Of a stretch of 64,000 nucleotides of DNA, positions 1,360-42,927 are shown one piece after another. This stretch comes from a virus. The notes beneath the pieces were generated by a model, which was given only the letters and a program-made list of their open reading frames with translations, was not told the DNA's origin and did not search any database. The position numbers and the translations under genes were made by a program. Within the stretch, counting starts at the first letter, position 1. Each line of letters opens with the position of its first letter. The DNA lies in the IMG/VR virus record IMGVR_UViG_3300010367_000168, positions 1-64,000 of that record. One strand, 5' to 3'.

Positions 1360-1636
1360 GGCCGCCCTGGCCGCGTACTGCCAAGCCTATGGTCGGTGGG
1401 TCCAGGCCGAGAAGGCCATTGCCGAGATGGCCAAGCGGGATCTCCTGACCGGTGGTCTGATGATCAAGACGAGCAACGGCAACGCCATCCAGAACCCGCT
1501 CGTCGGCACCGCCCACAAGGCCGCCGCCGACATGGTCCGGTACGCCTGCGAATTCGGCATGAGTCCGGCGGCGCGATCCCGTATCGCCGCTGGTCCGATC
1601 GAGGACGGGTCGAAGTTCGACGGGCTGCTTGCCTAA
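1154..1636 (+). CDS. terS: terminase small subunit (P27-family-like)
   Basis: N-terminus MSKLRSSAKPTALKLIQGNPGKRPINKREPKP and a helical body typical of P27-type TerS. It lies immediately upstream of terL. Confidence 0.8.
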   Translation: MSKLRSSAKPTALKLIQGNPGKRPINKREPKPISAIPDPPEVLSTAAAIEWMRITPELHALGLLTGLDRAALAAYCQAYGRWVQAEKAIAEMAKRDLLTGGLMIKTSNGNAIQNPLVGTAHKAAADMVRYACEFGMSPAARSRIAAGPIEDGSKFDGLLA

Positions 1637-3218
1637 GAAGCGCGGCGCGTTCCCCGAACGCGCAGAGAGGGTCCGCCGCTTCATTGAATGCCTGATCGTC
1701 CCGTCCGGCGTTGGCCAGGGTGGACCGCTTCGGACGCGGCGGTTCCAAAGGAAGTTCATCCAGGCGATCTATGAGCCCCATACCTTCAAGGGGCGGCGAT
1801 GGCGCCGGGTGGTGCGGCGGGCGATCCTCTCCATCGCCCGGAAGAACGGAAAGACGGCGCTGATCGCGGCCCTCGTGCTGGTCCATCTGTGCGGACCCGA
1901 GGCGATCCCGAACGGCGAAATCTACTCGGCCGCGAACGAAAGAGAGCAGGCCGCCCAGGTCTTCAAGGTCTGCCAGCAGATGATCGCGGCGGACCCGGAA
2001 CTGCGTTCTCGAGCCGGGCTTGAGGTGATCCCGTCCACGAAGACGATCATCTGCCGCCGGAACGGCTCGGTCTATCGGGCGATCTCGGCCGAGGCCGGGA
2101 CCAAGATGGGCTTGAACCCGAGCGTCGTCGTTTATGACGAGCTGGCGCAGAGCAAGAACCGGGCTCTCTACGATGCTCTCGACTCTGGCATGGGCGCCCG
2201 CGAGGAGCCGCTCTTCATCATCATCAGCACGCAATCGAATGATCCGCAGCACATCCTGTCGCAACTGATCGATGACGGGCTTCGGGCCGAAGACCCCACG
2301 ATCGTCTGCCATCTCTACGCGGTCCCCGACGACGCCGAAGACATCTTCGATGAAGCCGTCTGGCCGCTCGCTAATCCGGCTCTGGACGATTTCCGCTCCC
2401 TGGAGGACATGCGGGCGATGGCGCAACGGGCGTCACGCATGCCTTCGTTCGAGGCGTCCTTCCGCAACCTCTATTTGAACCAACGGGTCGATGCGCAGAG
2501 CCCGCTGATCCCGCGGTCGGAATGGGAGGCGTGCAAGGTCGCCGAGACCCTCCAGCCGGGCGAGCGGATCTATCTAGGGCTCGACCTGTCGGCGACCACC
2601 GATCTCACGGCCCTCGTCGCCTGCTCGGCGGACGGCGGCGACCGGATCGGGTCGTGGTTCTGGAAGCCGGGCGGGTTGGTCAAGGAGCACGAGCTGCGGG
2701 ACCGGGCGCCCTATTCCCTGTGGAAGGAGCAGGGCTGGCTCAGAGCCCCACCGGGCAAGGCCATCGACTACGGCTACATCGCCGAGCAGATCGCGGAGCT
2801 GTCCACCGACTACGACATTGTCGGCCTGGCTTATGATCGCTGGCGGATCAAGGACTTGATGCGGGAGTTCGACCGCATTGGCCTGCGCGCCTACGCGGAC
2901 GACGACAAGCCCATCCCCGGCGGCCTGCGGCTCGTCTCCTGGGGCCAGGGCTTCCGGGATATGAGCCCGGCGATCGACGCTCTGGAGATCTCGATCCTGC
3001 AGCGCAGGTTCGCTCACAACGGCAACCCGGTGCTCAACTTCTGCATCGCCAATGCGCAGGCCGTGAGCGACCCGGCCGGCAACCGTAAGCTCGACAAGTC
3101 GGCAACCCGGTTCCGCATCGACGGTGCGGTCGCGACGGCCATGGCTGTTGGGCTCAAGGCCCGCGACCTCCAGCGGGTCGTGCAGCCGACCTATCAGATG
3201 CTCTTCCTGGGGAGCTAG
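1629..3218 (+). CDS. terL: terminase large subunit
   Basis: 529 aa. ATPase N-half (ARKNGKTALIAALVL, VVYDELAQ) and nuclease C-half of Terminase_1 type. TTG start overlaps the terS stop. Confidence 0.9.
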   Translation: MPKKRGAFPERAERVRRFIECLIVPSGVGQGGPLRTRRFQRKFIQAIYEPHTFKGRRWRRVVRRAILSIARKNGKTALIAALVLVHLCGPEAIPNGEIYSAANEREQAAQVFKVCQQMIAADPELRSRAGLEVIPSTKTIICRRNGSVYRAISAEAGTKMGLNPSVVVYDELAQSKNRALYDALDSGMGAREEPLFIIISTQSNDPQHILSQLIDDGLRAEDPTIVCHLYAVPDDAEDIFDEAVWPLANPALDDFRSLEDMRAMAQRASRMPSFEASFRNLYLNQRVDAQSPLIPRSEWEACKVAETLQPGERIYLGLDLSATTDLTALVACSADGGDRIGSWFWKPGGLVKEHELRDRAPYSLWKEQGWLRAPPGKAIDYGYIAEQIAELSTDYDIVGLAYDRWRIKDLMREFDRIGLRAYADDDKPIPGGLRLVSWGQGFRDMSPAIDALEISILQRRFAHNGNPVLNFCIANAQAVSDPAGNRKLDKSATRFRIDGAVATAMAVGLKARDLQRVVQPTYQMLFLGS

Positions 3219-3317: not shown

Positions 3318-3342
3318 AAGGGCGCAGTCTTGTGCCCTTTTT
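3318..3342 (+). terminator. hairpin plus T-run between terL and capsid gene
   Basis: AAGGGCGCA-GTCT-TGTGCCCTT stem (one G-U pair) followed by a T5 run. It overlaps the upstream ATG 3332, which favours ATG 3359 as the capsid gene start. Confidence 0.45.
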
Positions 3343-3358
3343 GCTTCTGGAGCTGCCC

Positions 3359-5299
3359 ATGCTTGATCGGGCCTACAGCGTCCTGCACGTCCGCAGCGTC
3401 AACGACGAGGACCGGGTGATCGAGGGCATCGCCTCGACCCCGCGGCCGGACCGTATCGGCGATGTCGTCGAGCCCATGGGCGCCAAGTTCGCGCTGCCGA
3501 TGCCTCTGCTTTGGCAGCACAACGCCACGATGCCGGTCGGCCACGTCGAGTTCGCCAAGCCGACCAAGGAAGGCATCCCGTTCCGAGCCGTCATCGCGAA
3601 GATCTCCGATGCCGGCACTCTCCGCGATCGTGTCGACGAAGCATGGCAGTCGGTCAAGGCCGGCCTCGTCCGTGCTGTGTCGATCGGCTTCCGGGCCATC
3701 GATCGCGAGTTCCTCGAAGGCGGCGGCATCCGCTTCCGCACTTGGGAATGGCTGGAGCTGTCGCTCGTAACCATTCCCGCCAATGCGGACGCCACCATCA
3801 CCGCCATTCGATCGATCGACGCCGAACTCCGGGCCGCGACCGGCCAGTCGGAGCGCAGGGCCGATCGTCCCAAGCTGCCCGGCGCCTCGGGCTCCCTGAA
3901 ACACAATGCGAAGAAAGGGGCCAAGGCTATGCCGAGGACCATCGCAGAGCAGATCGCTGCATTTGAGAACACCCGCGCCGCAAAGGCCGCGCGGATGGGC
4001 GACATCATGAACGAGGCTGGCGAGAACGATGTCACCCTCGATACCGAGCAGGCCGATGAGTATGACGGCCTGCGGGACGAGGTGAAGGAGATCGACTCCC
4101 ATCTCGGCCGGCTGCGCGAGCAGGAGGCCCTCCAGGCCGTCACCGCCCGTCCGGTCACCACGGTTGCCACTGAGCGCGGCCTGGCCGACCGGGGCCAGAG
4201 CCCGATCGCCATCGTCCGCGAGACCAAGCTGCCGCCCGGCATCGAGTTCGCCCGCTACGTCAAGGCGCTCGCCGCGGCGAAGGGCAACCCGCAGATCGCG
4301 TTCGAGATCGCGAAGTCGCAGTATCCCGAAAACGGCCGCATCCACAATGTGCTCAAGGCCGCGGTGGCCGCGGGCACCACGACCGACCCGACCTGGGCCG
4401 GCCCGCTGGTGGATTACCAGACCTTCGCCGGGGACTTCATCGAGTTCCTGCGGCCGACCACCATCCTCGGCAAGTTCGGCGCCAATGGCATCCCGAACCT
4501 GTTCAACGTGCCGTTCAACATCAAGATCCCGGCACAGACCAGCGGCGGCAATGCCTACTGGGTCGGCGAAGGCAAGCCGAAGCCCCTGACCAAGTTCGAT
4601 TTCTCGCAGATCGAACTGCGCTGGGCCAAGATCGCGAGCATCGCGGTCCTGACCGAGGAGCTGGTCCGCTTCAGCAACCCGAGCGCGGACACCCTCGTCC
4701 GCAACGCCCTGGCCGAGGCGGTGCGGGCCCGCATGGACACCGACTTCATCGACCCGGCCAAGGCCGCGGTCGCGAACGTGTCCCCGGCGTCCATCACCAA
4801 CGGCGTCGCCCCGATCGTCTCGACCGACGACGTTTCGGCCGATCTGGACGCGCTGTACACGGCGTTCATCACCGCGAACCTGTCGACGGCCAACGCGGTC
4901 TTCATCATGAGCGAGATCCTCGCGCAGCAGATCGCTCGCGTGAAGACCCCGCTCGGTCAGACCGAATATCCCAACATCGGGCCGCGCGGCGGCTCGCTGG
5001 AGGGCGTGCCCGTCATCACGTCGCAGTACGTGCCGGCTGGTACGATCATCCTCGTGGCGGCCGACCAGGTCTACCTCGCGGACGACGGTCAGGTCGTGAT
5101 CGACGCCTCCCGCGAGGCGTCCCTGGAGATGCTGGACAACCCGACCAACAGCTCGGCGCCGCCGACTGCCACGTCGCTGGTCTCGCTCTGGCAGACCAAC
5201 TCCATCGGCATCAAGGCCGAGCGCTTCATCAACTGGCAGAAGCGCCGGGCCCAGGCCGTCGCGCTCGTGACCGGCGCCAACTACGCGCCGACCACCTAA
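3359..5299 (+). CDS. prohead protease / major capsid protein fusion (HK97 type)
   Basis: N-terminal ~180 aa resemble an HK97-family prohead protease (MLDRAYSVLHVRSV..IEGIASTP..DRIGDVV). A coiled-coil linker follows, then a C-terminal HK97-type major capsid domain. TGGAG RBS precedes ATG 3359. Confidence 0.85.
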   Translation: MLDRAYSVLHVRSVNDEDRVIEGIASTPRPDRIGDVVEPMGAKFALPMPLLWQHNATMPVGHVEFAKPTKEGIPFRAVIAKISDAGTLRDRVDEAWQSVKAGLVRAVSIGFRAIDREFLEGGGIRFRTWEWLELSLVTIPANADATITAIRSIDAELRAATGQSERRADRPKLPGASGSLKHNAKKGAKAMPRTIAEQIAAFENTRAAKAARMGDIMNEAGENDVTLDTEQADEYDGLRDEVKEIDSHLGRLREQEALQAVTARPVTTVATERGLADRGQSPIAIVRETKLPPGIEFARYVKALAAAKGNPQIAFEIAKSQYPENGRIHNVLKAAVAAGTTTDPTWAGPLVDYQTFAGDFIEFLRPTTILGKFGANGIPNLFNVPFNIKIPAQTSGGNAYWVGEGKPKPLTKFDFSQIELRWAKIASIAVLTEELVRFSNPSADTLVRNALAEAVRARMDTDFIDPAKAAVANVSPASITNGVAPIVSTDDVSADLDALYTAFITANLSTANAVFIMSEILAQQIARVKTPLGQTEYPNIGPRGGSLEGVPVITSQYVPAGTIILVAADQVYLADDGQVVIDASREASLEMLDNPTNSSAPPTATSLVSLWQTNSIGIKAERFINWQKRRAQAVALVTGANYAPTT

Positions 5300-5304: not shown

Positions 5305-5853
5305 GTGATCTGGCACGCGACACCCTGGCTCTCGGGCGACATCGGCGGCGGGTTGAACCTGTTCGTCGAGCGCCTGCCCGAGGACGCCTGGGTCTGCCTT
5401 CGTGACGGCGACACGATCTGGCTCACGTCAGATTGGGGCGACCAAGTTGAGCGGGTGGTAGCCGAGCACGGCGAGACTTTTGCGGTGCTCGGCTGCATGA
5501 CCAATCGGCTCCGGTCGCCCCACCAGCTCCACGGCGGCGTCATGTCGACCGATCCGGACATCGGGCGGCACCGCGATATCGCCCTTGCCCGGTGGAAGGA
5601 ACACGGCACCGCGGTTCAACCGCTGACCCGCGGCGTCCTGGCCGGCATGTGCCTGATCTTCCCGAAGCGGGTCTGGGTCGAGCACCCGTTCGAGGAACGC
5701 TCGATCCACTTCGACAAGACGTTCTGCGAGGCGGTGCGGGCCGGCGGTGGCCGGCTCGGCGTCGCTCTCGGGATCTACCTCTTTCATCTCTACCGCTGGG
5801 GCGCGCGGAACCCGTTTGCCTCCACGGCCCATCTTGCAGGGGTCGGTCGATGA
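5305..5853 (+). CDS. GT-A-like glycosyltransferase candidate (182 aa)
   Basis: Pattern LNLFVERLPEDAWVCLRDGDTIWL (DxD-like DGD), LAGMCLIFPKRVW and FDKTFCEAV..GGRLG resembles small GT-A fold transferases. Stop overlaps the next start (ATGA). Confidence 0.45.
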   Translation: MIWHATPWLSGDIGGGLNLFVERLPEDAWVCLRDGDTIWLTSDWGDQVERVVAEHGETFAVLGCMTNRLRSPHQLHGGVMSTDPDIGRHRDIALARWKEHGTAVQPLTRGVLAGMCLIFPKRVWVEHPFEERSIHFDKTFCEAVRAGGGRLGVALGIYLFHLYRWGARNPFASTAHLAGVGR

Positions 5854-7235
5854 AGATCGGCATCGGCGTCACCACGCACAACCGGCGCGAGACATTCCTC
5901 CACTCGCTTGCGCAGATCCGCCGCTTCGCACCGCCGGGTTCGGTGCTTGTCATCGTGGACGACGCCAGCGCCGAGCCGGCACCGGAAGCAACCTTCCGGT
6001 TCACGGTCAACGCCGGCATCGCTCGTGCGAAGAACAAGTGCTTGGAGCTGCTGGACGAAGCCGGGTGCGACGAGTTCTTCCTGTTCGATGACGACACCTA
6101 TCCGCTCTGCCCGGATTGGTGGCGGCCCTACGTCGAGAGCGACGAGCCGCACCTGATGTACATCTTTGCCGATTTCCGTGATCGTCCGACGCTTCGGGAC
6201 ACGACCATCCTCTACGGCGACAGCAAGATCACGGCATACAGCCACGCTCGCGGCTGCATGCTCTATCTCAATCGGCTCTGCCTGGAACGGGCCGGCGGTA
6301 TGAACCCGGCGTTCGGGCGCTGGGGCTGGGAACACCCGAACCTCTCGGAGCGGATCTACAATCTCGGCCTGACCACCTTCCGATATGCCGATGTCACCGG
6401 CAGCGACCGGCTGATCCATAGTGGCGACGAATTCCTGGAGGTGAAGTCGACGGTCTACGGCGAGGAGCGCCAGAAGTGGATCGCCCGCAATCGCGGCCTC
6501 CACCAGGGGCTCCGGGACGCGACCGAGTTCGTGCCCTTCCGGGCAACCGAGGACGTGGTCCTGTCCTGCTATTTCACCGGACAGCCGGACCCGCAGCGCG
6601 GCGACGCCCGGATGCCCACGAACTACGATGACCTCCTGCCGCTGATCAACAGCATGCACGGGCAGCAGCTCGTGATCTTGCACGACTGCCTGGATGCGCC
6701 GGACACGCCGACGCTCAAGCACGTGCGGGTCGAGACCGCCATTCAGCCCTACTTTCAGCGGTGGATCTCGTACCTCCAGTATCTTCGGGCGCATCCGGAA
6801 ATCGATCGCGTCTTCTGTGTCGATGCGACGGACGTGGAGTTGCTGAACGACCCGTTCATCGAGATGGGCGAGCACCTGTACATCGGCGATGAGCCCTCCC
6901 GGCTCGCATGCCCATGGATGCTCCAGCAGCACCGGGCGATCTTCTTGCTCGAATTCTTCCGCCGATATGGCCATCTGCCGCTGCTCAACGCGGGCCTCCT
7001 CGGGGGCCGGCGCCAGCTCGTGGTGCAGTTTTTGCAGCGGTTGATCTCGGTCTACTTCGACGCCCTGACCGATGCCGCGATCAAGAAGCTGCCGGGCCCA
7101 GGCACGACCGATATGGGCGTCTTCAACTACACTGCTCGAACCTTCTTCGCCGCCCGGCTCAAGCATGGCCGCGAGGTGAATACGGTCTTCAAGAGCTTCT
7201 GCAACGAAGGCCCGAGCTGGTTCCGCCACAAGTAG
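5850..7235 (+). CDS. two-domain glycosyltransferase (GT2-like N-half plus second nucleotide-sugar-transferase-like half)
   Basis: N-half MKIGIGVTTHNRRETF..VLVIVDDASAEP..NAGIARAKNKC..FFLFDDDTYP is a classic GT2 signature. C-half has CVDATDVELLNDPF (DxD-like). The ORF-track N-terminal extension from 5592 has implausible composition. Confidence 0.7.
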   Translation: MKIGIGVTTHNRRETFLHSLAQIRRFAPPGSVLVIVDDASAEPAPEATFRFTVNAGIARAKNKCLELLDEAGCDEFFLFDDDTYPLCPDWWRPYVESDEPHLMYIFADFRDRPTLRDTTILYGDSKITAYSHARGCMLYLNRLCLERAGGMNPAFGRWGWEHPNLSERIYNLGLTTFRYADVTGSDRLIHSGDEFLEVKSTVYGEERQKWIARNRGLHQGLRDATEFVPFRATEDVVLSCYFTGQPDPQRGDARMPTNYDDLLPLINSMHGQQLVILHDCLDAPDTPTLKHVRVETAIQPYFQRWISYLQYLRAHPEIDRVFCVDATDVELLNDPFIEMGEHLYIGDEPSRLACPWMLQQHRAIFLLEFFRRYGHLPLLNAGLLGGRRQLVVQFLQRLISVYFDALTDAAIKKLPGPGTTDMGVFNYTARTFFAARLKHGREVNTVFKSFCNEGPSWFRHK

Positions 7236-7243: not shown

Positions 7244-7498
7244 GTGCCAGAACTGATCTCTCTCAGGCCCATGCGTTATCGCCATCGGGCGCTTCGCCCC
7301 GGCGTGCCGTTCACGGTGCCGACCGACATCGAGGCCGACCTTCTGAAGCGGGCCCGCTGTGCCAGGGACGCCGTTCCGAATAATTCGGAGCGCGGCTACG
7401 AGGTGGCGGCCGTCACCGCGGAGGACTCGCCGGCCAGGCCGAAGCTCAAGCGCAAGCCGCAACGGTATCAGCGCCGGGACCTCCGGGCCGATGACTGA
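7244..7498 (+). CDS. hypothetical protein (84 aa)
   Basis: GTG 7244 preceded by GAGG. Alternative ATG at 7271. Basic C-terminus. No family recognised. Confidence 0.4.
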   Translation: MPELISLRPMRYRHRALRPGVPFTVPTDIEADLLKRARCARDAVPNNSERGYEVAAVTAEDSPARPKLKRKPQRYQRRDLRADD

Positions 7499-7757
7499 GC
7501 CCTACAGCGACCTTTGGCCCAGCACCCCGGCGGCCGAGGAGCGGCCGGAGCTGGTCCTCAACGTCCGTGTCCTGGAGGGCGATCTCCAGCGGCTCCGGCT
7601 GCGCCGCGGCGACAAGCTCGTCCTCATGACGGACCGCGTGCTCACAGAGAACGAGCAGGTCCACATCATGCATGAGCATAAGCGGTCCTTCCCCGACCAC
7701 GAACTGATCGTCCTTCCGCCCGGCTTCCGGCTCGGCGTGATCGCGGCATCGGACTAG
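7491..7757 (+). CDS. hypothetical protein (88 aa)
   Basis: ATG 7491 overlaps the upstream stop. Plausible composition. Confidence 0.5.
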   Translation: MTEPYSDLWPSTPAAEERPELVLNVRVLEGDLQRLRLRRGDKLVLMTDRVLTENEQVHIMHEHKRSFPDHELIVLPPGFRLGVIAASD

Positions 7758-7760
7758 CCC

Positions 7761-9143
7761 ATGCGGATCTTCGGCCTCACCATCTCCAGGACCGCGGACG
7801 AGGCCAAGGCGGTGCCGGCCAATCTGCGCGGCCCATCCAATCGCGGCGGGTGGTGGCCGTTCGTCCGCGAGCCCTATGCGGGAGCGTGGCAGCAGAACGT
7901 CGAATGGTCCACCGACGAGGTGCTGGCCTATTTCGCCGTTTACCGCTGCATCAGCTTGATCAGCTCCGACATCGCCAAGATGGAGTTGATGCTGGTCAAT
8001 TGGGCCAATGGCATCTGGACCGAGACCGACAGCCCGGCCTTCTCGCCGGTCCTGGCCAAGCCGAACCCGTACCAGACGCGCATCCAGTTTTTCCAGTCGT
8101 GGGTGATCTCGAAGCTCGTCAACGGCAACGCCTACGTCCTCAAGGAGCGCGATCAGCGCGGCGTCGTGGTGGCGATGTACGTGCTCGACCCGTGGCGGTG
8201 CCAGCCGCTCATCGCCGAGGACGGCTCGGTCTACTATCAGCTCGCGGTCGACACGCTCAACGGGATCGAGAACAGCGTCGTCGTACCGGCCCGCGAGATC
8301 ATTCACGACCGGTGGAACACGCTCTACCACCCCCTCTGCGGGACCTCGCCGATCTTCGCTTGCGGCCTCGCCGCCATGCAAGGGCTCAAGATCCAGAACA
8401 ACTCGGCGGCGTTCTTCGGCAATGGGTCGCAGCCGGGCGGCATCCTGACTGCTCCTGGCGCGATCAGTGATGAGACCGCTACTCGGCTGAAGGCGCATTG
8501 GGACGCCAACTACAGCGGCACCAATGTCGGCAAGATCGCGGTGCTCGGTGATGGCCTCAAGTATGAGGCCATGGCGCTCTCTGCCGTGGACTCGCAGCTC
8601 ATCGAGCAGCTCCGGTGGACGGCCGAGGTGGTCTGCGCGGCGTTCGGGGTCCCTGCCTACATGGTCGGGATCGGCGCAACCCCGACCTACAACAACATCG
8701 AGGCGCTCTCGCAGCAGTATTACTCGCAGTGCCTCCAGATCCACATCGAGAGCATCGAGATCTGCCTCAACGAAGGGCTCGCGCTTCCAAAAGCCTACGG
8801 CACCCGCTTCTCGATCGACGATCTGCTCCGGATGGACACGGCCACGATGATCAAGGCCGAGGCCGAGGCCGTGGGCGCTGGCATCAAGGCGCCGAACGAG
8901 AGCCGGCTTCGGCTCAACCTCCCGCCGGTCAAGGGTGGCGCCACTCCCTATTTGCAGCAGCAGAACTACTCGCTCGCAGCCCTGGACGAGCGCGACCGCG
9001 GCGACCCTTTTGCGAAGCCGGCGCCACAACCGGCGCCCCAGCTCGCGCCGCCCGAGGCCGATTCCGAGGAGGAGGAGCCGACCGACGTAACCGCGGCCTT
9101 GGTCGCGCGGATCGAGCGCGCATGGGAGGCTGCTCATGTTTGA
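7761..9143 (+). CDS. portal protein (HK97 family)
   Basis: 460 aa. VLAYFAVYRCISLISSDIAKM, NGNAYVLKERD and QQYYSQCLQIHIESIE are typical of HK97-type portals. Acidic C-terminus. Confidence 0.9.
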   Translation: MRIFGLTISRTADEAKAVPANLRGPSNRGGWWPFVREPYAGAWQQNVEWSTDEVLAYFAVYRCISLISSDIAKMELMLVNWANGIWTETDSPAFSPVLAKPNPYQTRIQFFQSWVISKLVNGNAYVLKERDQRGVVVAMYVLDPWRCQPLIAEDGSVYYQLAVDTLNGIENSVVVPAREIIHDRWNTLYHPLCGTSPIFACGLAAMQGLKIQNNSAAFFGNGSQPGGILTAPGAISDETATRLKAHWDANYSGTNVGKIAVLGDGLKYEAMALSAVDSQLIEQLRWTAEVVCAAFGVPAYMVGIGATPTYNNIEALSQQYYSQCLQIHIESIEICLNEGLALPKAYGTRFSIDDLLRMDTATMIKAEAEAVGAGIKAPNESRLRLNLPPVKGGATPYLQQQNYSLAALDERDRGDPFAKPAPQPAPQLAPPEADSEEEEPTDVTAALVARIERAWEAAHV

Positions 9144-10242
9144 TGTCGATGTCGTGGCGCGGGCCCTGGTCAACGGGGCCGAGCGCCGCCTGGAGACGCT
9201 CGTCGAGCCGGTCCGCGGGCTGGCCACCACCAACCGGCAGGACATCGAAGTTTGCACGGCGATGCTGTGCGCGGTCGAGGCCGAGCTGAAACAGGCCAAC
9301 GTCGTCATCAATGGTCTAGTCGAGCGGCTCGGCGAAATGTCCGAGCGGGTGGCCACCCTGGAGGCCAGGGCGCCTATTCCCGGCCCAGCGGGGCCCGCTG
9401 GGGCCGATGGCGCCCCAGGGGCGCCCGGTGCCAAGGGCGAACGTGGCGACCCCGGCCCTGCTGGCCCCCAGGGGCCGCAAGGGGAACCCGGCCTGGCCGG
9501 CGCTCCCGGCCCGAAGGGCGACCCCGGCGAGCAAGGCTCGGAAGGGCCGCAGGGCCCGGAGGGACCGGCTGGCCGCGACGGTGTCGACGGCCAGGACGGC
9601 GCGCCCGGCGAGCAAGGGCCGCAGGGCGAGGCTGGCCGCGACGGCTTGGACGGTATGGACGGCGCCCCTGGCGCGCCTGGAGAGGCCGGTCCTGCTGGTC
9701 CGGCTGGCTCGGCTGGGCCCCAGGGCGAGAAGGGCCTGGACGGCGCCCCTGGCCGCGACGGGCGCGATGGCGTGCAGGGACCGCAGGGCGAGCGCGGCTT
9801 GCCCGGCCCCCAGGGCGAGGTCGGCCCGGTCGGGAGCCGAGGCGAGCGCGGCGAGAAGGGGGACCCCGGCCGCGACGGCTACAGCATCACGGATCTGGAC
9901 TTCTCGACGCCGGACGGTGGCCGGACGCTCGTCGTCACGGTCGGTGGTGGCGACGAGGTTCTGACCAACGAAATCCAGACGCAGACCACGATCTGGCAGG
10001 GCACGTTCAAGGAGGGTGTCACCTATCTCCCCGGCGATATCGTCACGCTCGGCGGCTCCTGGTGGCACTGCAACCTGGAGACCACCGAACGGCCGGGCGA
10101 GGCCAAGGCGGCCTGGACGCTGACCGTCAAGCGCGGTCGTGACGGCCGGGACGGCAGGGATGGCGAGCGCGGCGAGCGCGGTCCGCAGGGGCCGCAGGGC
10201 CGTGACCTGACCCAGATCGCTCCGGATGGGAGCAAGTTCTGA
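9136..10242 (+). CDS. collagen-like triple-helix-repeat protein with C-terminal CBM5/12-like motif
   Basis: N-terminal coiled coil, ~55 uninterrupted G-X-Y triplets, a globular region WQGTFKEGVTYLPGDIVTLGGSWWHCNLETT..PGE..AAW, then a second short GXY run. Start overlaps the portal stop. Confidence 0.85.
   Translation: MFDVDVVARALVNGAERRLETLVEPVRGLATTNRQDIEVCTAMLCAVEAELKQANVVINGLVERLGEMSERVATLEARAPIPGPAGPAGADGAPGAPGAKGERGDPGPAGPQGPQGEPGLAGAPGPKGDPGEQGSEGPQGPEGPAGRDGVDGQDGAPGEQGPQGEAGRDGLDGMDGAPGAPGEAGPAGPAGSAGPQGEKGLDGAPGRDGRDGVQGPQGERGLPGPQGEVGPVGSRGERGEKGDPGRDGYSITDLDFSTPDGGRTLVVTVGGGDEVLTNEIQTQTTIWQGTFKEGVTYLPGDIVTLGGSWWHCNLETTERPGEAKAAWTLTVKRGRDGRDGRDGERGERGPQGPQGRDLTQIAPDGSKF
9382..9879 (+). 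repeat. G-X-Y collagen triplet tract (coding)
   Basis: Residues G83-G248 of the 368-aa ORF are continuous Gly-X-Y. Confidence 0.9.
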
Positions 10243-11848: not shown

Positions 11849-12301
11849 ATGGCCCAGCCCGAACTCGTCGGTGCGAGGGAGCTGCTGCTGTACTTCGAAG
11901 ATCCCAATGTCCCGAATGTTTGGCTCTTCGCCTGCGGCATCAACTCGCGAGCCCTGAACGGCACGCTCAACAACACGGAAACCCCGATCGCCGATTGCGA
12001 CGACCCCACCGCGCTGCCCGTGCGGCGGGTGACCGCAAACTACTTCGCCGAGGACATCTCGGGCACCGGGATGCTGGCGAAGGAGCGTCTGGACGATTTC
12101 GAGGCGATCTACAAATCCGCGGCCTCGCACCGCTGGCGGATCGGCCTGCTCAACACGGGCTATTGGCAGGGACCCTTCCTGATGACCAGCCGCAACATCG
12201 GAGGCGAGCAGGAAGGGTATGTCACCCTTGAGATCACGCTCACGAGCGATGGGCCGGTCCCCTACACCGCTGACCTCACCTTCCCCGGAGCAACGACGTG
12301 A
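11849..12301 (+). CDS. major tail (tube) protein
   Basis: 150 aa. ELLLYFED..FACGINSRALNGT..ETPIADCDDP resembles TP901-1/GTA-type tail tube proteins. It is followed by the chaperone pair and tape measure. Confidence 0.7.
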   Translation: MAQPELVGARELLLYFEDPNVPNVWLFACGINSRALNGTLNNTETPIADCDDPTALPVRRVTANYFAEDISGTGMLAKERLDDFEAIYKSAASHRWRIGLLNTGYWQGPFLMTSRNIGGEQEGYVTLEITLTSDGPVPYTADLTFPGATT

Positions 12302-16466: not shown

Positions 16467-17081
16467 ATGCCCTTCTTCCCGCCTTTCCCGTCTGCGGTTC
16501 GTGCGCAGGCGCAGGGCCTCCATGTTGTCGCATCGCTCTTCATCACGTTCGATTTCCTGACCACCCCGATCCGCGTTTGGGAGGGGGACGGTGAACTCGA
16601 ACGGGAGGGTGAGACGTGGCGTGGCGTCGGTTCCCGAGTGAACAACGACGGGAGCCCCCTGCAGTCGATCGATGGGCTGGAGGAGGCGATCAACGGGCAA
16701 GCCCCGCAACTGAGCCTCACGCTTTCCGGAGTGGATCAAACGGTCGTGGCCGCAGCCCGCGAGGATGTCGCGAACCAAGAGATCGAGGGCCGGGATCTGA
16801 CCGTGCAGATCGGGTTCTTCGACGCAAGCCAACCGGGCTTGGTCCCGCTAGATAATCTCCTGGTCCTTGGCGTTTGGGCCATGCAGAAGCCGAGTTTTAC
16901 GGCGACGGGCCCGAGCCTGCGGACGATCAATCTCCCCTGCGAGACCCTGTTCGCCCAGCGCAGCCGCGCGCCTTTCGGTCTCCTGACCGACCGCGATCAG
17001 CAGCGCCGCTTTCCGGGCGATCTGGCCTGCCAATTCCCGCCCTCTCTCGTGGATCGCGACGTGGCATGGCCGCGCCACTAG
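16467..17081 (+). CDS. minor tail protein (hub/L-like position)
   Basis: 204 aa following the distal tail gene. Called by synteny with lambda-like and GTA-like tail tips. Confidence 0.5.
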   Translation: MPFFPPFPSAVRAQAQGLHVVASLFITFDFLTTPIRVWEGDGELEREGETWRGVGSRVNNDGSPLQSIDGLEEAINGQAPQLSLTLSGVDQTVVAAAREDVANQEIEGRDLTVQIGFFDASQPGLVPLDNLLVLGVWAMQKPSFTATGPSLRTINLPCETLFAQRSRAPFGLLTDRDQQRRFPGDLACQFPPSLVDRDVAWPRH

Positions 17082-17491
17082 GCGCCGGGGGGCCGGCCTT
17101 CGACGCCGGCCTGGCGGACCATCTACGCATCGGCAACGAGACGCCCGTCGAGCTGGGCCGGTGCGACTGCTCGCTGTGGGTGGCCGATTGGGTTCGCAAG
17201 CGGGTCGGCATCGATCTCGCCGAGGACTTCCGCGGCAAATACCACACCCGCGCCGAGTATCTCCGGTTGCTGATCCCCATGGGTGGGCTCGTGCGGGTGA
17301 CGGCCCGGCGCATGGATGCCATCGGCGCCGAGATCATCCCCCCGAGCGACTGCCGGCCTGGAGACATCGGGGTCATCGCGACGAGCGACGGTCCGGCCCT
17401 GGCGATCTGCGGGCCGGATGGATGGCTCGCCAAAGTCGGCGACGAGCTGGCCGCGTCCGATCACGCGACCTTTGCCTGGAGGCTCCCGTAA
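17066..17491 (+). CDS. tail-tip NlpC/P60-like protein (lambda K position)
   Basis: The RCDCSLWVADWV segment resembles the catalytic Cys region of NlpC/P60-type tail peptidases. ATG 17066 lies inside a longer ORF. Confidence 0.4.
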   Translation: MAAPLGAGGPAFDAGLADHLRIGNETPVELGRCDCSLWVADWVRKRVGIDLAEDFRGKYHTRAEYLRLLIPMGGLVRVTARRMDAIGAEIIPPSDCRPGDIGVIATSDGPALAICGPDGWLAKVGDELAASDHATFAWRLP

Positions 17492-20400
17492 ATGCCGGTT
17501 GCGATTCCGCTTGCCCTCGGTGCCGCGGCGGCCGGGGCCGGCGTCGCTGGCGGTATCGCCGCTGGAGCGGCCAGCCTGACCTTCCTCGGCATCGGGGCCT
17601 GGGGCTGGGCCGCGATCAGCGTCGGCCTCACCGTGCTCGGGTCGGTGGCGCAGATGATGCTGTCGCCAACCCCGCCCAAGCCGCAGATGCAGGACGGCGA
17701 CGTTTCCGTCAAGCAGGCGATCCCGTCGCGTCGCCGCATCTACGGCCGGCAGCGGCTAGGTGGCGTATTTCTGTATTACGACTCCACCTCCGAGGGCGAT
17801 CTGAAGACGCTCGTTTGCCACGCGGCTCACGAGGTCGACGATTCGGTCATCGGGGCGCCGAACCCGGAGGAGCACTGGCTCAACGACGAACGCGTCCAGG
17901 TTGACGACAACGGGCAAGTAACCGACGACCCGTGGTGGCAAGAAGGCAGCGGGTTCGGTGGTGACGAGGGGCACAGCGTCGTCACGATCATCAGCTATCT
18001 CGGCGCGCCCAGCCAAGTCATCGCCCAGTTCGACGACAGATGGACCGCCGATCACAAGGGGCACGGGCTCAATTGTACTTACGTCGAGTACAATGATCTC
18101 AAGGACGAGGACCAGCTCAAGGTCTTTCCGCAGGGGCCGCCCCCCTATCGCGTCGTCCTCAGGGGAGCCAAGATCTTCGACCCTCGGGACCCGGCCCAGC
18201 ATGCCGGCACCGAGTCCGGCTACAAGTGGTCGGATAATGCCGCGCTCGTCGTCCTCGACTATCTGACCCGTACCGAGAACGGCATCCCTGTCGGGTTCGG
18301 GATCGCGTGGTCTCGGGTCGATACCGCCAGCTTCGCCACTGCCGCGGCAATCTGCGATCAGCTCATCCCGATCAAGGTCAACGGGGTGGTCGCGGGCGTT
18401 GAGAAGCGGTGGCGCTCCTGGGGAGGCTATGAGCTTACGGAGGACCGGAAGGACGTTCTGAAGGATCTGCTCGACGCCTGTGCTGGCCGGCTCATCCAGA
18501 CCCCGCAGGGCAAGATCGGGCTTTCTGTCGGCGCAGGACGCTATCGCACGCTGCCGGCTGACCCGTGGACCATCCCCAGCGGCGTCCCGGCCTCGTCGGT
18601 GACCTTGGGCGAGGACCAGCTCTTCGGGTGGGACCTGACCAACGGCAAGGCTGCGATCGAGCGCGTCAACGAGGTCCGCGCGACCTACGTATCCGAGGCC
18701 TGGGATTGGGCCGAGACCGAGGCAGGCATCCAAACCGATGACGCCGGGATCGACCGCAACGGAACGGAGAGCAGCCAGATCAAGCTCCGGTTCGTCCCGG
18801 CCGAGAGTCAGGCCCAGCGGGTCGCCCGCGAGGTACTGCGCCGCGGCAACCCGACTTGGATTGGAACCGTCCGCACCACGCTCGCCGGGCTCGATGCCTG
18901 GGGCGAGCGTTGGATCACGCTCGTCATCCCGGAGCTGCTGATCGACGGTCTCTTTGAGGTGACCGGGATGCGGTTGGACCGGACGACCATGATGGTCGAG
19001 ATCGACGTGTCCTCCTATGACGATTGGTGGGATTGGACCGCGACCGTCGACGAAAAGTTGCCGGCTGTCCCGCCACCCGAGGACGAGGACGAAGACGACA
19101 TCCCGATCCCGGATAACGTTGCCGTCGCCATCGTGCATCGGCCGATCAATGGCCAGACCGTCCAGGCAGTTGGCGTGATCACGTGGGACCCGCCTCCGAG
19201 GCCGATCTATACCGCCCGTGCTCGCTACCGCCCCGTCACGGTGCCCGTCTCGCCCTGGCAGTCGCTGCCGGTGGCGCAGGACGGCCTCCAGGTGGAAACC
19301 AACCCGCTCGCCGATGGCCAAGGCTACGAGGCGCAGGTTCGGTTCCTGGGGGCGCGCGGGGCGGGCGGCGATTTCTCGACTCCCCCGGTGTCGTTCACCG
19401 CCGTTGCCGATCCCGTGGCGCCGCCCTCTCCGACCGGTCTCACGGCCCAGCAGGGCGTGCCGACGTTGGGTTCGGTGACGGTCCAGGCGACCGCGCCGAA
19501 CTCGCCCAAGCATGCATCGCTGCGGTTCTATCGCAACTCGTCCAGCTCGTTTACCGGCGCGACCCTCATCGCCGGGCCGCTCTACTCAAGCCCCGGCTCT
19601 AGCCGCAGCTATGTCGACACGCCGGGCACTGGCGACTGGTGGTATTTCGCCACGAGCGCGAATTGGTCGAGCGTCGAGAGCCTCCCGACCCTGCCTGGCG
19701 TGCTGGCCGAGGTTCTCCCCGCGGCTCCGGTCATCACCACCACGCCTGCGACCATCGGCCAGACGAACCCGACCATCACTGGCACGTCCGCTGCGGGCGC
19801 GACGATCAAGGTATTCGCCAACGCCGTCCTCAACACCACGACGACCGCATCTGGCGCGGGCAGCTGGTCCGTCGCCCTGATCGCCCTCGGCAGCGGGGCG
19901 CAGACCATCACTGCAACCGCGACCGTCGCCGGCAATGAGAGCGCCGCCTCGGGCTCCGTGACGATGACTGTCGTCTGGTACGATCCGGACGCTTCGGTCC
20001 ATGCCGACTTCAAGGGCGGGCAGTACCGGCTCAACGGCTCGGCCTCGACGCTGGCCGGCATCTTCGATGTCCTCACCACGTCGGCACAGATCGTAACCCA
20101 TGCCAATGGGGCGCTGTCGTTCGTGCCCGCCAACTCCGCCCCGCTCTGCGACCGGGGGCTTGAGGTTTGGGAGAACAGAACCAACCGCTGCACCAATCGC
20201 AATGCGGCGCCGGTCGATCTAACCGGGGTCACTCTGAGCGGCGATGCTGCGGCGACGCTGACCCGCGTCGATGACAGCGCCAGCATGGGCTCGGGCTCGA
20301 TCCTCAACGCCCTGCTGACCGGCGGGGCGTTGAACGGGTTCGTCTACAAGCTGGACAACTCCATTGGGACCACCGACGCCTTCGCCACGATCAGCGGCAT

Positions 20401-21139
20401 CGTCGCCGTTGTCGGTGCCTGCCGTGGCTCCATCGTCTACCGGGGCTCCGCCGGACGCATTGAGATCGGCGGAGCGACTGCGGTCGCGTTCGCGGCCTCG
20501 ACCCCGTATTCGCGCGTGGGTGGGGGCAGGACGGCAGCCGCCACCACCGAGCAGATGCGCGTCGCTGCGCCGGCTGGCTCGGTGATCTTCTTCATTCTCA
20601 ACCAACTGGAAAACGGGTCGACCGATACGGCGCCGATCGTGGTGAATGCCGCCACCGCGTCGCGTAGCGCCCCTCTCATCCAGCACACGGCCGGCGTCGA
20701 CTTCAATGCCGTGGAGGGCTTCTTCGGAGCCCGCGCGAAGGTCGCCCCCGGCACCACCAACTCGGGTGTCGTCGTCGGGTCACTCCAGACCACGATTGCC
20801 GATGCGAACCTGATCCAGTTCAGCGCGGTTTCGGCAATGCGCGGCCTGACCCAGGTCGCCGCCGCGGCGACGGGTGTGGCATCGCAGTCGGTCACCGCGA
20901 CGAACATGACGACCGGCATCTACGGATACCGCGCCAACGACTTTGCGTTCGCTGCCAACGGCCTACCGGTGGTGACGGACACCTCTGGCGCGGTCCCCAC
21001 GGGAACGCCCGCAAAGATCACTGTGAGCCTCTCGGTCACGCCCCCGCTGAATGGGGTCATCGAGCAAGTCAAATGGGGCCTCGCGAGACCCGCGAACGCG
21101 CTCATCCAAGCCAAGAGCGGCTGGACGACCCTCTCCTAG
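17492..21139 (+). CDS. host specificity / central tail fibre protein (lambda J / GTA g15-like)
   Basis: 1215 aa. Gly/Ala-rich N-terminus, then SRRRIYGRQRLGGVFLYY, which is conserved in J-like proteins. Ig-like segment PVITTTPATIGQTNPTITGTS..ATIKVFAN. Confidence 0.8.
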   Translation: MPVAIPLALGAAAAGAGVAGGIAAGAASLTFLGIGAWGWAAISVGLTVLGSVAQMMLSPTPPKPQMQDGDVSVKQAIPSRRRIYGRQRLGGVFLYYDSTSEGDLKTLVCHAAHEVDDSVIGAPNPEEHWLNDERVQVDDNGQVTDDPWWQEGSGFGGDEGHSVVTIISYLGAPSQVIAQFDDRWTADHKGHGLNCTYVEYNDLKDEDQLKVFPQGPPPYRVVLRGAKIFDPRDPAQHAGTESGYKWSDNAALVVLDYLTRTENGIPVGFGIAWSRVDTASFATAAAICDQLIPIKVNGVVAGVEKRWRSWGGYELTEDRKDVLKDLLDACAGRLIQTPQGKIGLSVGAGRYRTLPADPWTIPSGVPASSVTLGEDQLFGWDLTNGKAAIERVNEVRATYVSEAWDWAETEAGIQTDDAGIDRNGTESSQIKLRFVPAESQAQRVAREVLRRGNPTWIGTVRTTLAGLDAWGERWITLVIPELLIDGLFEVTGMRLDRTTMMVEIDVSSYDDWWDWTATVDEKLPAVPPPEDEDEDDIPIPDNVAVAIVHRPINGQTVQAVGVITWDPPPRPIYTARARYRPVTVPVSPWQSLPVAQDGLQVETNPLADGQGYEAQVRFLGARGAGGDFSTPPVSFTAVADPVAPPSPTGLTAQQGVPTLGSVTVQATAPNSPKHASLRFYRNSSSSFTGATLIAGPLYSSPGSSRSYVDTPGTGDWWYFATSANWSSVESLPTLPGVLAEVLPAAPVITTTPATIGQTNPTITGTSAAGATIKVFANAVLNTTTTASGAGSWSVALIALGSGAQTITATATVAGNESAASGSVTMTVVWYDPDASVHADFKGGQYRLNGSASTLAGIFDVLTTSAQIVTHANGALSFVPANSAPLCDRGLEVWENRTNRCTNRNAAPVDLTGVTLSGDAAATLTRVDDSASMGSGSILNALLTGGALNGFVYKLDNSIGTTDAFATISGIVAVVGACRGSIVYRGSAGRIEIGGATAVAFAASTPYSRVGGGRTAAATTEQMRVAAPAGSVIFFILNQLENGSTDTAPIVVNAATASRSAPLIQHTAGVDFNAVEGFFGARAKVAPGTTNSGVVVGSLQTTIADANLIQFSAVSAMRGLTQVAAAATGVASQSVTATNMTTGIYGYRANDFAFAANGLPVVTDTSGAVPTGTPAKITVSLSVTPPLNGVIEQVKWGLARPANALIQAKSGWTTLS

Positions 21140-21193
21140 CCGATCCCCCAAGACCCGTTCCGACACCACCGTTCTTTGACGGAGCCCCCGATT

Positions 21194-24100
21194 ATGGCGA
21201 TCCCGAACGCTGACGAAATCTGGCGTGATCTCAATGCGGACGGGACCCCGCATGAGCCGATCAAAGACGAGATCCGGCGATACCTGAATTCCCTGTTTGT
21301 CGTTGCGTCGGCCAACGGGATGAAGACTTACCCCAACAAAGCAACGATGGACGCCGACACGAGCCAGCCTGTCGGCAAGCCCGCCCTCCTCTATGCCGAT
21401 CCTGTCCCGGCCAACAATTACCCGACCATTTGGACTTGGAGCGGGTCCGCGTGGATCGCGGGGGTCGATCGGATCAGCAGCCTTGCCGTCCAGGTCAACG
21501 CCAACGCGGGAGCGATTGCAGACGTGAACGCCGGTCTCATTCAGCAGCCGCAGCAGGCCAATTTTCAGTACCGCACGGGATACGTGCAGTCGTGGACGAC
21601 GATCACGAACCCCGCCACCCGGTGGACGATCTCGGAGACCGATGGGTCTTTCAAGATCGACACGACGGCGTCGCTACCGCAGCCCTGGCCGGTCGGCATC
21701 AAGCTCCCCTATGATCTGGTGCCCGGCGACGTGATCGAGGCCGAGTACAAGATCACGGCGGGAACGGTCGACGGCACGGTGGGACCGTACATCGGCACCG
21801 ACCCGGCGATCAGCGGCGACATCAGCACGGGTGCGATCCTCTACCACTGGCGCAATGCAGCCTCGGGCGGCGGCATCTATGGCCAGAACTACACGGGGAG
21901 CGGCGGCATCGTGGCGGGCTACGCAACGGTGCCCCAGGCCGGGACCGATGCACCTTCGGTTCCCTTCGTCCTGAATGACGTTCTGAAGATCATCGCCAAG
22001 GTGAAGGCCAATCGCAGCCTGACCATCGAGCTGTATGTCAACGGCACGTTGAAGATCACGCTGGATGCTCCGGGGGTGCTGCCGGTCGGCCGGGTGGTCG
22101 TCGGCCTCCTGCCGCCGGTTTCGGGCTCGGCCACCATCACCCACGTCAAGCGCACCGGCTTCATCGGCCAGACCGTCTATATCGACTCCCAGGCATCGAT
22201 CAGCGGCAACGGGTCCAACGGCGCTCCGGTGAAGACGTGGAGCGAGGCCGTTGCCATCGCCCAGGCAAACCGCCTGTCGGTCTGCGACGTGGTGATCCTG
22301 TCGGCGGAACTCCGCGGAGCGATCGTCGCGGACGACAAGCTGTTCTCGCGCTATCGCATCAGGGGGCGCGGCGGCTCGCAAACCAAGATCATTGCTGCCG
22401 ACTTCAGCCCGAACGATTGGCAGCTTCTTGGCGGGACCACTAAGGTTTGGTTCCGCCCGAACAAGAACGCTGCCGGTTCGCCGAATGTGACCCTGTCCGG
22501 CACGGTCTATTTCCCCGGCGTGCCGAGCCACCCGTATCCGTGGATCACGCTAGAGGATAGCTGGCTGCCGTATTTCACGGGAGTGCCTGCGGACCTGGAG
22601 GGGCAGGCCCAGGGTGGTCGCCGGGTGTCGGGCGGGAACCTGTATGTCCGCATGCCGGACAGCTTCGGCACGGCTCCGAACGCTACGACCATGGAGGTCA
22701 ACACCAGCGCGGCCGTTCTCTACTGCGTCGGCGCGCCGCAGCTCGAAGTCGAAAACATCGTCTTCTCGCGAGGCGGCAACGATGTCTTCTTTGCTGATCG
22801 CGCAACCGCAGTATTCCGGCATTGCCGTTTCGAATGGGGCGAAGTCAACGGTACGCAGGACTCGGCGGGCAACGTCTATTACTTCGATTGTGAGTGGCAC
22901 GGGGTCTCCAACGATCTCGCCGCACGCACCTTCCCGGTCGGCTACGCCGAAACCCTGCTGATGCTCCCGGTTTCGTATTTCAGCGGGTGCCGGATGTACG
23001 GGACGGTGCAGGGCGACGGCATCGCCCACCATGGCTCCACGGTCGCGATCAAGTCCCGGATGCGGGTTCATGATTGCGACATCTACGATTGCGCCAAAGA
23101 CGGCATCGTCCCGGCGTCCTGCGATTTCGAGATCAGCGGCTGCCGCATCCGGCGGTGCGCAAACGCTCAGATCGAGATCATCGGCGGCGGGACCGGCCCG
23201 TCCCTCCCGACCGGCATGTCCGCGAATGGGTCGATCACGGATTGCACGCTCGATCCCGCTGGGGTTGGCCTGTACGGCTTCCTTCAGTCCGGCGCGGCCG
23301 GCGGCAAGATCGCCACCACGATCGATCGGTGCCACTTCTCGACGCCGGTCAACGGCGAGTTGTGGGGCACCGTTTCGCCCGTGGCTGGCCGCACCTCGGT
23401 GCCGGCCGATTTCACCACCACGGTCATCGCCTCCACGTTCGAGCGGAACTCGTCGGAGCGGGTGATCCGCGACAATGGGGTGGTGACCTTCGATGTGAAC
23501 GATCCGCTCGGCGAGGTGCAGGACGTTCTCGGCCCGATTTCGGAAGTGATCATCCCCGATGGGGCGACGACCGTTGATGGGCTGAATTTCATCCTGCGCT
23601 TTTCCACCCCCGAGCCCAGCAACCGGCTTCTCGGCGGCATCACGGACCAGAGCCTTTTTGCCATGTTCAAGGGGTTCCTGCTCGCCGGGATCGGCGGCGG
23701 GACCCTGCGGCGCAGCGCGGACCCGGAAGTGATCTGCCAATGGGTCACGGCGAATGGCCGGGTCAAGATGCGCCTGCATTCGGACCCGGCTAAGGACATC
23801 ATTCCGGGCGGAGGCGGATCGTCGGGGGCATCCAACCCGCTCGGCGCGCAACTGGTGATGTATCCGGTCTACGGGCAAAGCCTGGGGGAGGGCGCCGAGG
23901 CGCTGCCCCCCATGTCCCTCGCCTCGACCGGGTCGAACGCCTTCAAGTTTGCGAGGGGCGTGCGTACGTTCAAGCTGGACGCCTGGGCCCTCAATCCGGC
24001 AGGGCGACCGGCGGCCGACTTCAACTTCGTCCCGCTGACCGAGCAGGTTGACGGCGCCACTGGCGAGACGATCGCCACCGCCTTTGCGGCGATGGTCAAG

Positions 24101-42853: not shown

Positions 42854-42927
42854 TGGATCGGGCGGCTGGATTCGAACCAACGTTGCAGGGACCAAAGCCC
42901 CGTGTCCTACCGCTAGACGACGCCCGA
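42854..42927 (-). tRNA. tRNA-Gln(UUG)
   Basis: Manual cloverleaf of 74 nt: U1-A72 pair, D-loop AGCGGUA, anticodon loop CUUUGGU, T-arm GUUGG-UUCGAAU-CCAGC, encoded CCA. Confidence 0.8.

Follow-up and report, generated by a model that had tools for sequence, protein, structure and literature searches.

A glycosyltransferase gene pair between phage capsid and portal genes as a candidate cassette for virion O-glycosylation at C-terminal threonines

Our analysis suggests that two adjacent genes in the head module of a phage, referred to here as GT1 and GT2, constitute a late virion O-glycosylation cassette that would act on the C-terminal Thr-Thr shared by the major capsid and tail-tube proteins. 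The genes lie in a 64,000-nucleotide (nt) stretch of viral DNA (positions 1 to 64,000 of IMG/VR record IMGVR_UViG_3300010367_000168; hereafter the window) and encode putative glycosyltransferases (GTs) of 182 amino acids (aa; GT1, 5305-5853) and 461 aa (GT2, 5850-7235). We put the probability of this reading at about 0.75, on evidence that is computational throughout. A first-pass annotation of the same DNA had already suggested the capsid protein as a substrate of these late-made enzymes, and this suggestion is supported by the homology of GT2 to a GT of cluster F mycobacteriophages, by the common Thr-Thr ending and by the covariation of GT content with C-terminal residues among related loci. 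The capsid protein of the window, a 655-aa fusion with the prohead protease (3332-5299), ends in ...GANYAPTT, encoded by ACC ACC TAA at 5291-5299 (Thr-Thr 5291-5296, stop 5297-5299), and the 150-aa tail-tube protein (11849-12301; Pfam Phage_tail_2, E 1.6e-9) ends in ...TFPGATT, with its Thr-Thr codons at 12293-12298.

The cassette is embedded in a single run of + strand genes that extends from terS (1103-1636), at the head of the late operon, through to the tail tube. The head module opens with terL, encoding the large terminase subunit (1629-3218; Pfam TerL_ATPase and TerL_nuclease), followed by the protease/capsid fusion (Pfam Peptidase_S78 and Phage_capsid; phrog_617, E 1e-172), GT1, GT2 and the portal gene (7761-9143; Pfam Phage_portal, E 4.5e-88), which marks the downstream edge of the insertion. 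GT1 has a GTG start codon, separated from the capsid stop codon by a gap of 5 nt, and its stop codon overlaps the GT2 start codon as ATGA at 5850-5853, the overlap from which the first-pass annotation had deduced coupling of the 182-aa and 461-aa genes. A scan for promoters and terminators near the cassette gave nothing above chance and no convincing terminator between the capsid gene and GT1. The earlier description of a GT pair between the protease-capsid fusion and the portal gene, within the late operon and on the late strand, is in agreement with this unbroken arrangement, and each sequence feature that it listed was found again at its coordinates. It also set these genes apart from the conversion genes that are linked to int, and indeed the integrase gene is about 40 kb from the GT cassette and on the opposite strand (46531-47925, - strand).

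Both proteins can confidently be assigned, from profiles and structural models, to the GT-A glycosyltransferases, with two GT-A domains in GT2. GT1, a minimal GT-A enzyme, matches phrog_14179, a family annotated as glycosyltransferase, with an E value of 2.9e-55 over positions 1-178 of 187, and its AlphaFold model is a compact GT-A fold (predicted local distance difference test score, pLDDT, 93.3; predicted template-modelling score, pTM, 0.90). The two aspartates of its RDGDT motif (D34 and D36) are invariant in 35 homologues, and the family alignment adds N18, N67, R68, H89, H161, Y163, R164 and H176 to the invariant residues. GT2 matches phrog_1579 over its full length (E 5.7e-152, positions 21-482 of 482), and its N-terminal half also matches phrog_2456 (E 7e-68). 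Its N-terminal domain (about aa 1-232; 5850-6545) carries DDAS and DDD motifs (VLVIVDDAS, FFLFDDDT), and its C-terminal domain (about aa 233-461; 6546-7232) a DATD motif (FCVDATDVE); D37, D38, D80, D82, D325, T327 and D328 show no variation across 28-29 homologues of about 50% identity, and the AlphaFold model (pLDDT 92.9) has GT-A folds. These results bear out the first-pass description of the smaller protein as GT-A-like with a DGD motif and of the larger one as a GT2-signature domain joined to a second transferase, as does the return of GT-A folds and PHROG glycosyltransferase families from the structure and profile searches.

Foldseek matches of the two proteins are to GT-A enzymes only (LH3, ppGalNAc-T2, K4CP, PmHS2, GT6). 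The neighbours of GT1 in the Protein Data Bank (PDB) are weak (E ~5e-4, template-modelling (TM) score ~0.5), with the LH3 glycosyltransferase domain, ppGalNAc-T2 and RmlT on top, two of which (LH3 and ppGalNAc-T2) act on proteins, and COLGALT1 lower (E 1.4e-3); its closest viral fold neighbour is a Cellulophaga phage GT. The top matches of GT2 (E about 1e-11) are the two-domain enzymes E. coli K4 chondroitin polymerase (K4CP, 2z86), Pasteurella heparosan synthase 2 (PmHS2, 8vh8) and human LH3 (6fxr), with which it has in common tandem GT-A domains and an acidic motif for metal/nucleotide-sugar in each half; identity to them is 12-14% and the whole-chain TM score 0.25-0.34, and nothing points to polymerase activity in GT2. 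In sequence searches, PDB entries gave marginal GT-A matches only, and neither protein reached a Pfam gathering cut-off (GT2 scored 22.1 bits on Glyco_transf_7C, PF02709, against a cut-off of 23; GT1 had no match) or matched the PADLOC defence models or NCBIfam. Many homologues carry precomputed matches to PF00535 (Glycos_transf_2) or PF02709. Both families are large: a search of 1.84 billion representative proteins returned 844 GT1 clusters at E <= 1e-10, and more than 1000 proteins belong to the GT2 family at the same threshold. Some members of the GT1 family consist of this domain alone (~180 aa), whereas in others it is found at the C-terminus of longer proteins, of ~390-420 aa or 550-650 aa.

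The link to virion glycosylation comes from the mycobacteriophages. GT2 is 47-48% identical from end to end to GTs of cluster F mycobacteriophages (Fruitloop gp99, 47% over 464 residues, E 2e-135), and it matched 567 mycobacteriophage records. The capsid proteins of the cluster F phages Che8 and Rita bear glycans (PMC11256854), and mycobacteriophage capsid and tail-tube proteins are glycosylated by GTs of the phages' own, with Che8 gp110 and Corndog gp38 being essential (PMC12363180). Fruitloop carries both the GT2 homologue gp99 and a gp110 homologue, gp102 (85% identical to gp110). In Che8, Fruitloop and Corndog, each of which has an enzyme of the gp110 family, the capsid and major tail proteins end in -TGS/-DGS and -VGS/-GDS. 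The glycans are reportedly O-linked at the C-terminus of the capsid and tail-tube subunits (Freeman and colleagues, 2023). To our knowledge, no other study has examined virion glycosylation of phages by experiment, and none has demonstrated it outside the phages of mycobacteria; the authors reportedly found little evidence for it beyond the actinobacteriophages. Our literature search returned no report of glycosylated capsids in phages of Gram-negative bacteria, nor of such a system outside actinobacteriophages, and in one study ten unrelated phages gave no glycostain signal.

The window resembles the mycobacteriophage system (Che8 gp108-110; Corndog gp35-38) in having phage-encoded GTs in or near the structural genes, placed between portal and capsid genes in Corndog as well, and in the hydroxy-amino-acid C-terminus common to capsid and tail tube. 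It differs in that an unrelated small GT-A enzyme (GT1, phrog_14179) takes the place of the gp110/gp38-family enzyme, in its acceptor end, which is Thr-Thr rather than Gly/Asp-Ser, in its presumably non-actinobacterial host (GC content 66%, capsid family of Pseudomonas, Salmonella and E. coli phages) and in having no methyltransferase gene beside the GTs. The first-pass opinion that enzymes are atypical of head modules needs qualifying here, because Corndog provides a precedent for GTs between portal and capsid genes; within the phage's own lineage the GT insertion is unusual.

A presence/absence control lies within the capsid's own family. We fetched 80 loci with homologues of the capsid fusion (51-86% identity) and detected GT genes by tblastn; GT content and the class of C-terminus covary among 75 capsid homologues. 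Capsids ending in -TT were accompanied by GT1 in 6/6 cases and by GT2 in 5/6, the single miss being a contig that ends inside GT1. GT2 was present in 37/43 loci with capsids ending in -GS or -TS, and in 29/29 of those with at least 8 kb on both flanks; its partner in -GS/-TS loci was always a homologue of gp110/Fruitloop gp102 and never GT1. By contrast, GT2 was found in 0/30 loci with other capsid endings (-VVP, -YTA, -PKQ, -YSA, -WGA and so on). Fisher's exact test gives p = 2e-15, a value inflated by the relatedness of the loci. In a neighbour-joining tree built with the last 12 residues removed, there are about six independent switches of C-terminal class, which go along with switches in GT content, and the sister clade of the window group (62% identical capsids) has -GS ends together with GT2 and a gp110-like gene. 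At these loci, an ORF (open reading frame) of tail-tube size matches the ending type of the capsid (for instance -ATS with -PTS, or -AGS with -SGS). The proteobacterial relatives with GT2 and a gp110-like gene (for instance the IMG/VR loci L136/L137 and L155-L208, and the Phytobacter prophage L110) have terL, the capsid fusion, the portal gene and the collagen-like gene in common with the window, as well as a GT2 orthologue and one C-terminal motif for capsid and tube; they differ in their gp110-like partner, in their -GS/-TS ends and in the place of the cassette, which follows the connector gene or precedes terS instead of separating capsid and portal genes.

The Thr-Thr ending also recurs far from this capsid family. 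In surveys in which ORFs were called on the + strand only and greedily by length, the first three other loci with a GT1+GT2 pair had capsid and tail-tube proteins that likewise end in Thr-Thr. One of the three, L006, comes from a siphophage that is unrelated to the window, has another type of terminase and does not have its capsid gene fused; the two endings there are ...GTVTT and ...TAPTT. Across 40 GT2-family loci, TT was the commonest C-terminal dipeptide (53/805 + strand ORFs), more frequent than the -HK of the GT2 proteins themselves. Among the large TT-ending proteins (non-redundant n=21), 17 match Phage_capsid and 3 Phage_cap_E, and among the small ones (n=23), 15 match five tail-tube families and 3 head-completion or connector proteins; a survey seeded with GT1 adds a Gp13-like capsid ending in TT and further tube families. 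Altogether, Thr-ending (mostly -TT) capsids occur in GT1 phages in 4 Pfam families and such tail tubes in 5 families, and the TT-ending proteins sort into 19 groups between which no similarity could be detected, with a proline common at position -3 (21/48). The motif is found in phages of three host phyla (Bacteroidota, Proteobacteria and Actinomycetota). It is kept in GT1 loci that have no full-length GT2, where capsid and tube still end in -TT; some GT1 loci pair the enzyme with a single-domain GT2N-like protein and a GT-B enzyme, and in others no further GT was detected.

These surveys point to GT1 as the enzyme that reads the C-terminus. Of 184 loci, 90 had GT1, 94 had a gp110-like gene and none had both; Thr was the last residue of 14.7% of ORFs in GT1 loci, compared with 3.0% elsewhere, and Ser of 14.1% in gp110-like loci, compared with 4.6-8.5% elsewhere. 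Because it is the small partner that changes with the acceptor residue, and the companion GTs can replace one another, we slightly favour a division of labour in which GT1 is a peptide-recognising priming enzyme for the terminal Thr and GT2 a glycan extender. A similar combination is found in the Cellulophaga phage phi12:1, where an enzyme of 407 aa, its C-terminal domain of the GT1 type, is encoded between the portal and capsid genes, and the capsid ends in -VSGT and the tail tube in -TVGT. As in the window, the GT1 domain of the phi12:1 pair gp39-gp40 belongs to the head module and is accompanied by a Thr-ending capsid and tube; the differences are that it forms the C-terminal domain of a longer protein, that a methyltransferase precedes it, that GT2 is missing and that the ends are -GT. 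Phi12:1 (L270; 20545-22217, 24052-25296, 29655-30089) is cultured on a Bacteroidota host and is a tractable test system.

We propose that both enzymes would be made in the cytoplasm beside the structural proteins, from a message shared with the capsid gene and by ATGA coupling. GT1 would recognise the free Thr-Thr with which the major capsid protein and the tail-tube protein end and move a first sugar from a host nucleotide-sugar to the hydroxyl of the terminal Thr, and GT2 would add further sugars, plausibly one linkage per GT-A domain. If the C-termini of HK97-fold capsid proteins and of siphophage tube proteins are external, as is general for these folds, they would face outward on the particle, and short glycans would cover both head and tail. 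The analysis shows the gene anatomy, the folds, the homology to the mycobacteriophage GT and the covariation of GT content with capsid and tail-tube endings; we infer the terminal Thr as attachment site, how the two enzymes divide the work, which sugars are donated and what the benefit would be, such as shielding or an altered surface.

Several observations weigh against this proposal. The ORF calling behind the surveys was crude, and some GT1 loci of 14-20 kb contained no TT-ending ORF on the analysed strand. GT2 homologues in Micromonospora and Dactylosporangium chromosomes had no obvious phage neighbours, and in phi92-like myophages, which possess a GT1 homologue, the capsid ends in -LTTA and the 75 kb examined contained no TT-ending ORF. 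On the mycobacteriophage side, BLASTP of GT1 and GT2 against Che8 gp108-110 gave no significant match, which ruled out the window GTs as homologues of these three proteins, and tblastn found no homologue of the essential gp110/gp38 enzyme in the window, so that the priming role of GT1 is drawn from covariation only. The literature searched yielded no direct test of a Fruitloop-type GT2.

The actinomycete GT2 homologues (L094-L107, L118) are ~50% identical, and in a one-strand scan their large neighbours did not resemble phage structural genes; the family may have a cellular role there, or ORF calling in high-GC DNA may have produced an artefact. In phi92-like phages (E. coli phage phi92, L127, 32201-35377, - strand; L128, 18223-19224), gp166 is 45% identical to GT1 and is accompanied by the GT2N-like gp165 and two GT-B enzymes, in a cluster that is on the early strand and adjoins the gene for DNA polymerase. 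These phages may be an exception to the GT1/Thr-terminus rule, or their enzymes may have a different target, perhaps DNA. We considered phi92 as a cultured test case for GT1 and set it aside, since with its -LTTA capsid and no TT ends it neither supports nor fits the rule.

Alternatively, the GTs might act on other virion proteins (the collagen-like protein, tail fibres or portal), Thr-Thr not being the attachment site. The collagen-like protein was the second substrate proposed in the first-pass annotation; its gene (9136-10242; Pfam Collagen, E 1.7e-32) lies 1.9 kb downstream, the collagen-glycosylating enzymes LH3 and COLGALT1 are among the fold neighbours of our proteins, and the head-tail module of phi12:1 also encodes a collagen-repeat protein. 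These fold matches reflect the GT-A fold in general (TM about 0.25-0.5), however, and the collagen-like protein, which ends in ...DGSKF, has no TT/GS motif or conserved C-terminal motif and is encoded in 20/30 GT-negative as well as 36/38 GT-positive relatives, so that we reject it as the acceptor on both motif and distribution. Modification of other virion proteins, which would leave the TT ends of four capsid and five tube families with GT1 unexplained, is unlikely. Equally without an account of the covarying capsid and tube C-termini is lysogenic conversion or host takeover, in which host lipopolysaccharide, O-antigen or exopolysaccharide would be modified. This function is suggested by the PHROGs category 'moron, auxiliary metabolic gene and host takeover', by the frequency of GT-A enzymes in polysaccharide synthesis (K4CP and heparosan synthase being the top folds for GT2) and by one Pantoea prophage with a GT2 homologue between the lysis cassette and the terminase gene, a typical moron site. 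Gtr cassettes (GtrA/GtrB/GtrC) are also phage-borne and also include glycosyltransferases of the GT-A/GT2 kind, and they include membrane components and handle lipid-linked sugars at the periplasmic face. The GtrA flippase, the bactoprenol GT GtrB and the membrane protein GtrC are encoded near int/att, whereas the cassette of the window has no GtrA/GtrB/GtrC-like partner and no Pfam membrane family in or beside it, and lies ~40 kb from the integrase gene in the late operon, where expression in a dying cell suits virion modification. We regard conversion as quite improbable.

Glycosylation of hypermodified DNA bases as a protection against restriction, known for the GTs of T-even phages and for TET-associated GTs, has a slimmer chance still. 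It would be in keeping with a weak match of GT2 to phrog_842, a beta-glucosyl-HMC alpha-glucosyltransferase family (E 0.0013), with a TET-associated GT among the distant viral fold neighbours of GT1 (E 8e-4), with the DNA methyltransferase gene that precedes terS and with the DNA polymerase gene adjoining the phi92-like homologues. The matches are marginal, though, no gene for hydroxymethyl-pyrimidine synthesis was noticed among the profiled ORFs of the window (not every ORF being scanned), and neither the head-module site nor the C-terminal covariation would be predicted. Finally, TT/GS ends and GTs could co-occur by shared ancestry, hitch-hiking together in one mobile head module. Many of the surveyed loci are indeed closely related, such as the large enterobacterial -TS/-GS clade, and the counts are inflated by this non-independence. 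Shared ancestry is nevertheless difficult to reconcile with a motif found on four capsid and five tube Pfam families, in 19 similarity groups and in three host phyla, or with an ending that switches about six times within one capsid family in step with GT content; in addition, the cassette sits at different positions, and must therefore have moved independently of the capsid gene. To this explanation we give the least credence of all.

The position of the cassette is variable. In the GT-less relatives PAJU2 and BP-4795, terL is followed by the capsid fusion, and between this and the portal gene there are only one or two small ORFs, so that we take the GT pair of the window to be an insertion at the capsid/portal junction. 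The first-pass annotation had given terL-portal-protease-capsid, with no enzymes in between, as the normal order of HK97-type head modules; the GT insertion is indeed unusual, but a capsid gene in front of the portal gene is native to this lineage, as these two phages demonstrate. In other relatives, the cassette follows the collagen-like gene (L005), the connector gene (L136, L137) or, directly, the portal gene (L006), precedes terS (L155, L160), or lies between terL and the portal gene (L025, L027). Late orientation and a location in or beside the head module are kept at every slot examined; the synteny that the first-pass annotation suggested surveying was recovered to that extent, without the exact capsid-portal slot. 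Because the slot varies and the late orientation is constant, the cassette appears to be a mobile module whose link to the head genes is functional rather than positional. The host is probably proteobacterial, judging from the GC content of the window (66%) and from a terL 68% identical in an Acetobacteraceae metagenome-assembled genome (MAG), the other terL relatives being metagenomic. The best GT2 match in a scan of genome contigs was 52% identical, with no close relative.

What distinguishes the window from the mycobacteriophage system is a different family of priming enzyme, a different acceptor motif and a different, probably proteobacterial, host group. With more than 1000 GT2-family proteins and 844 GT1-family clusters, the pattern suggests a much broader trait, and we think it rather probable, from the distribution of genes and endings, that virion glycosylation is widespread, modular and horizontally mobile among tailed phages of Proteobacteria, Bacteroidota and Actinomycetota. 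A C-terminal code would pick the priming GT, with Thr (-TT/-GT) calling for GT1/phrog_14179 and Ser (-GS/-TS) for gp110, and the extension enzymes (GT2, GT-B, methyltransferases) would be interchangeable; the window would be a founding example of the Thr-Thr/GT1 type. If such a code exists, glycosylated phages could be predicted from sequence alone, by looking for matching Thr or Ser ends on capsid and tail tube together with the cognate small GT, and recognition of a free C-terminal dipeptide would provide a hypothesis for how soluble GTs choose their substrates. Phi12:1 and the enterobacterial -GS/-TS prophages are candidate cultured systems. A short C-terminal tag might serve capsid glyco-engineering, and the code might guide the choice or design of therapeutic phages with a glycan shield against antibodies.

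Some relatives and neighbouring genes deserve mention. In Corndog (L209), a methyltransferase gene and three GT genes lie between portal gp34 and the major head protein gp41 (16775-19527, 20547-21779, 24316-25131); the head protein ends in -LVGS and gp49 in -KGDS, which fits the rule of Ser termini with gp110-family enzymes. GT2-less relatives of the capsid often carry a Maf/MptE-like gene (L008:9498-10049, L139, L144, L149, L154, L157-L159, L173, L199), and the capsids of such loci often end in -A (-YSA, -YTA, -WGA). In the Pseudomonas phage PAJU2 (L269, 7780-9723), the Maf/MptE-like gp10, annotated as 'alpha-2,3-sialyltransferase', is followed by gp11 and the methyltransferase gp12 inside the head-tail module. 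It is possible that Maf/MptE-like and methyltransferase genes form a cassette for a third kind of virion modification. In the Stx phage BP-4795 (L268; 7995-9932, 14287-15132) the capsid ends in -SASGG and the major tail protein in -GAGG, with no GT gene nearby. These two cultured relatives of the capsid were discarded as tests, BP-4795 for having no GT and -GG ends, PAJU2 for having a different cassette and no clear motif.

Within the window, two small ORFs of 75 aa (7271-7498, + strand) and 88 aa (7491-7757, + strand), called as genes on an identical Logan contig, separate GT2 from the portal gene; they have no Pfam or NCBIfam match and are kept only in the closest relative, of 81% identity. 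The collagen-like gene (+ strand) begins 8 nt before the portal gene ends, and the last 90 residues of its product align with the C-terminal end of long 'portal' profiles (770-857 of the 859 positions in phrog_2271, and phrog_1289), so this domain would be fused to the portal protein in some phages. Connector and tail-completion genes lie between the collagen-like gene and the tail tube, and the tape measure and further tail genes after it, all on the + strand. The DNA methyltransferase gene directly upstream of terS (23-490) encodes a fusion of ParB-N with an N6/N4 DNA methyltransferase; it is truncated by the start of the window and complete in a related locus (L003:95-1456). About 40 kb from the head module, tRNA-Gln and tRNA-Ser genes are found at 42854-43115, and the integrase in that region is of the tyrosine type. 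Elsewhere, the window encodes a tail fibre with a beta-helix, helix-turn-helix regulators, an ERF recombinase and a primase-helicase. Genes of phage type are spread over all 64 kb, with no clear host gene among the profiled parts (16-64 kb being profiled in part), and related IMG/VR contigs measure 72-74 kb.

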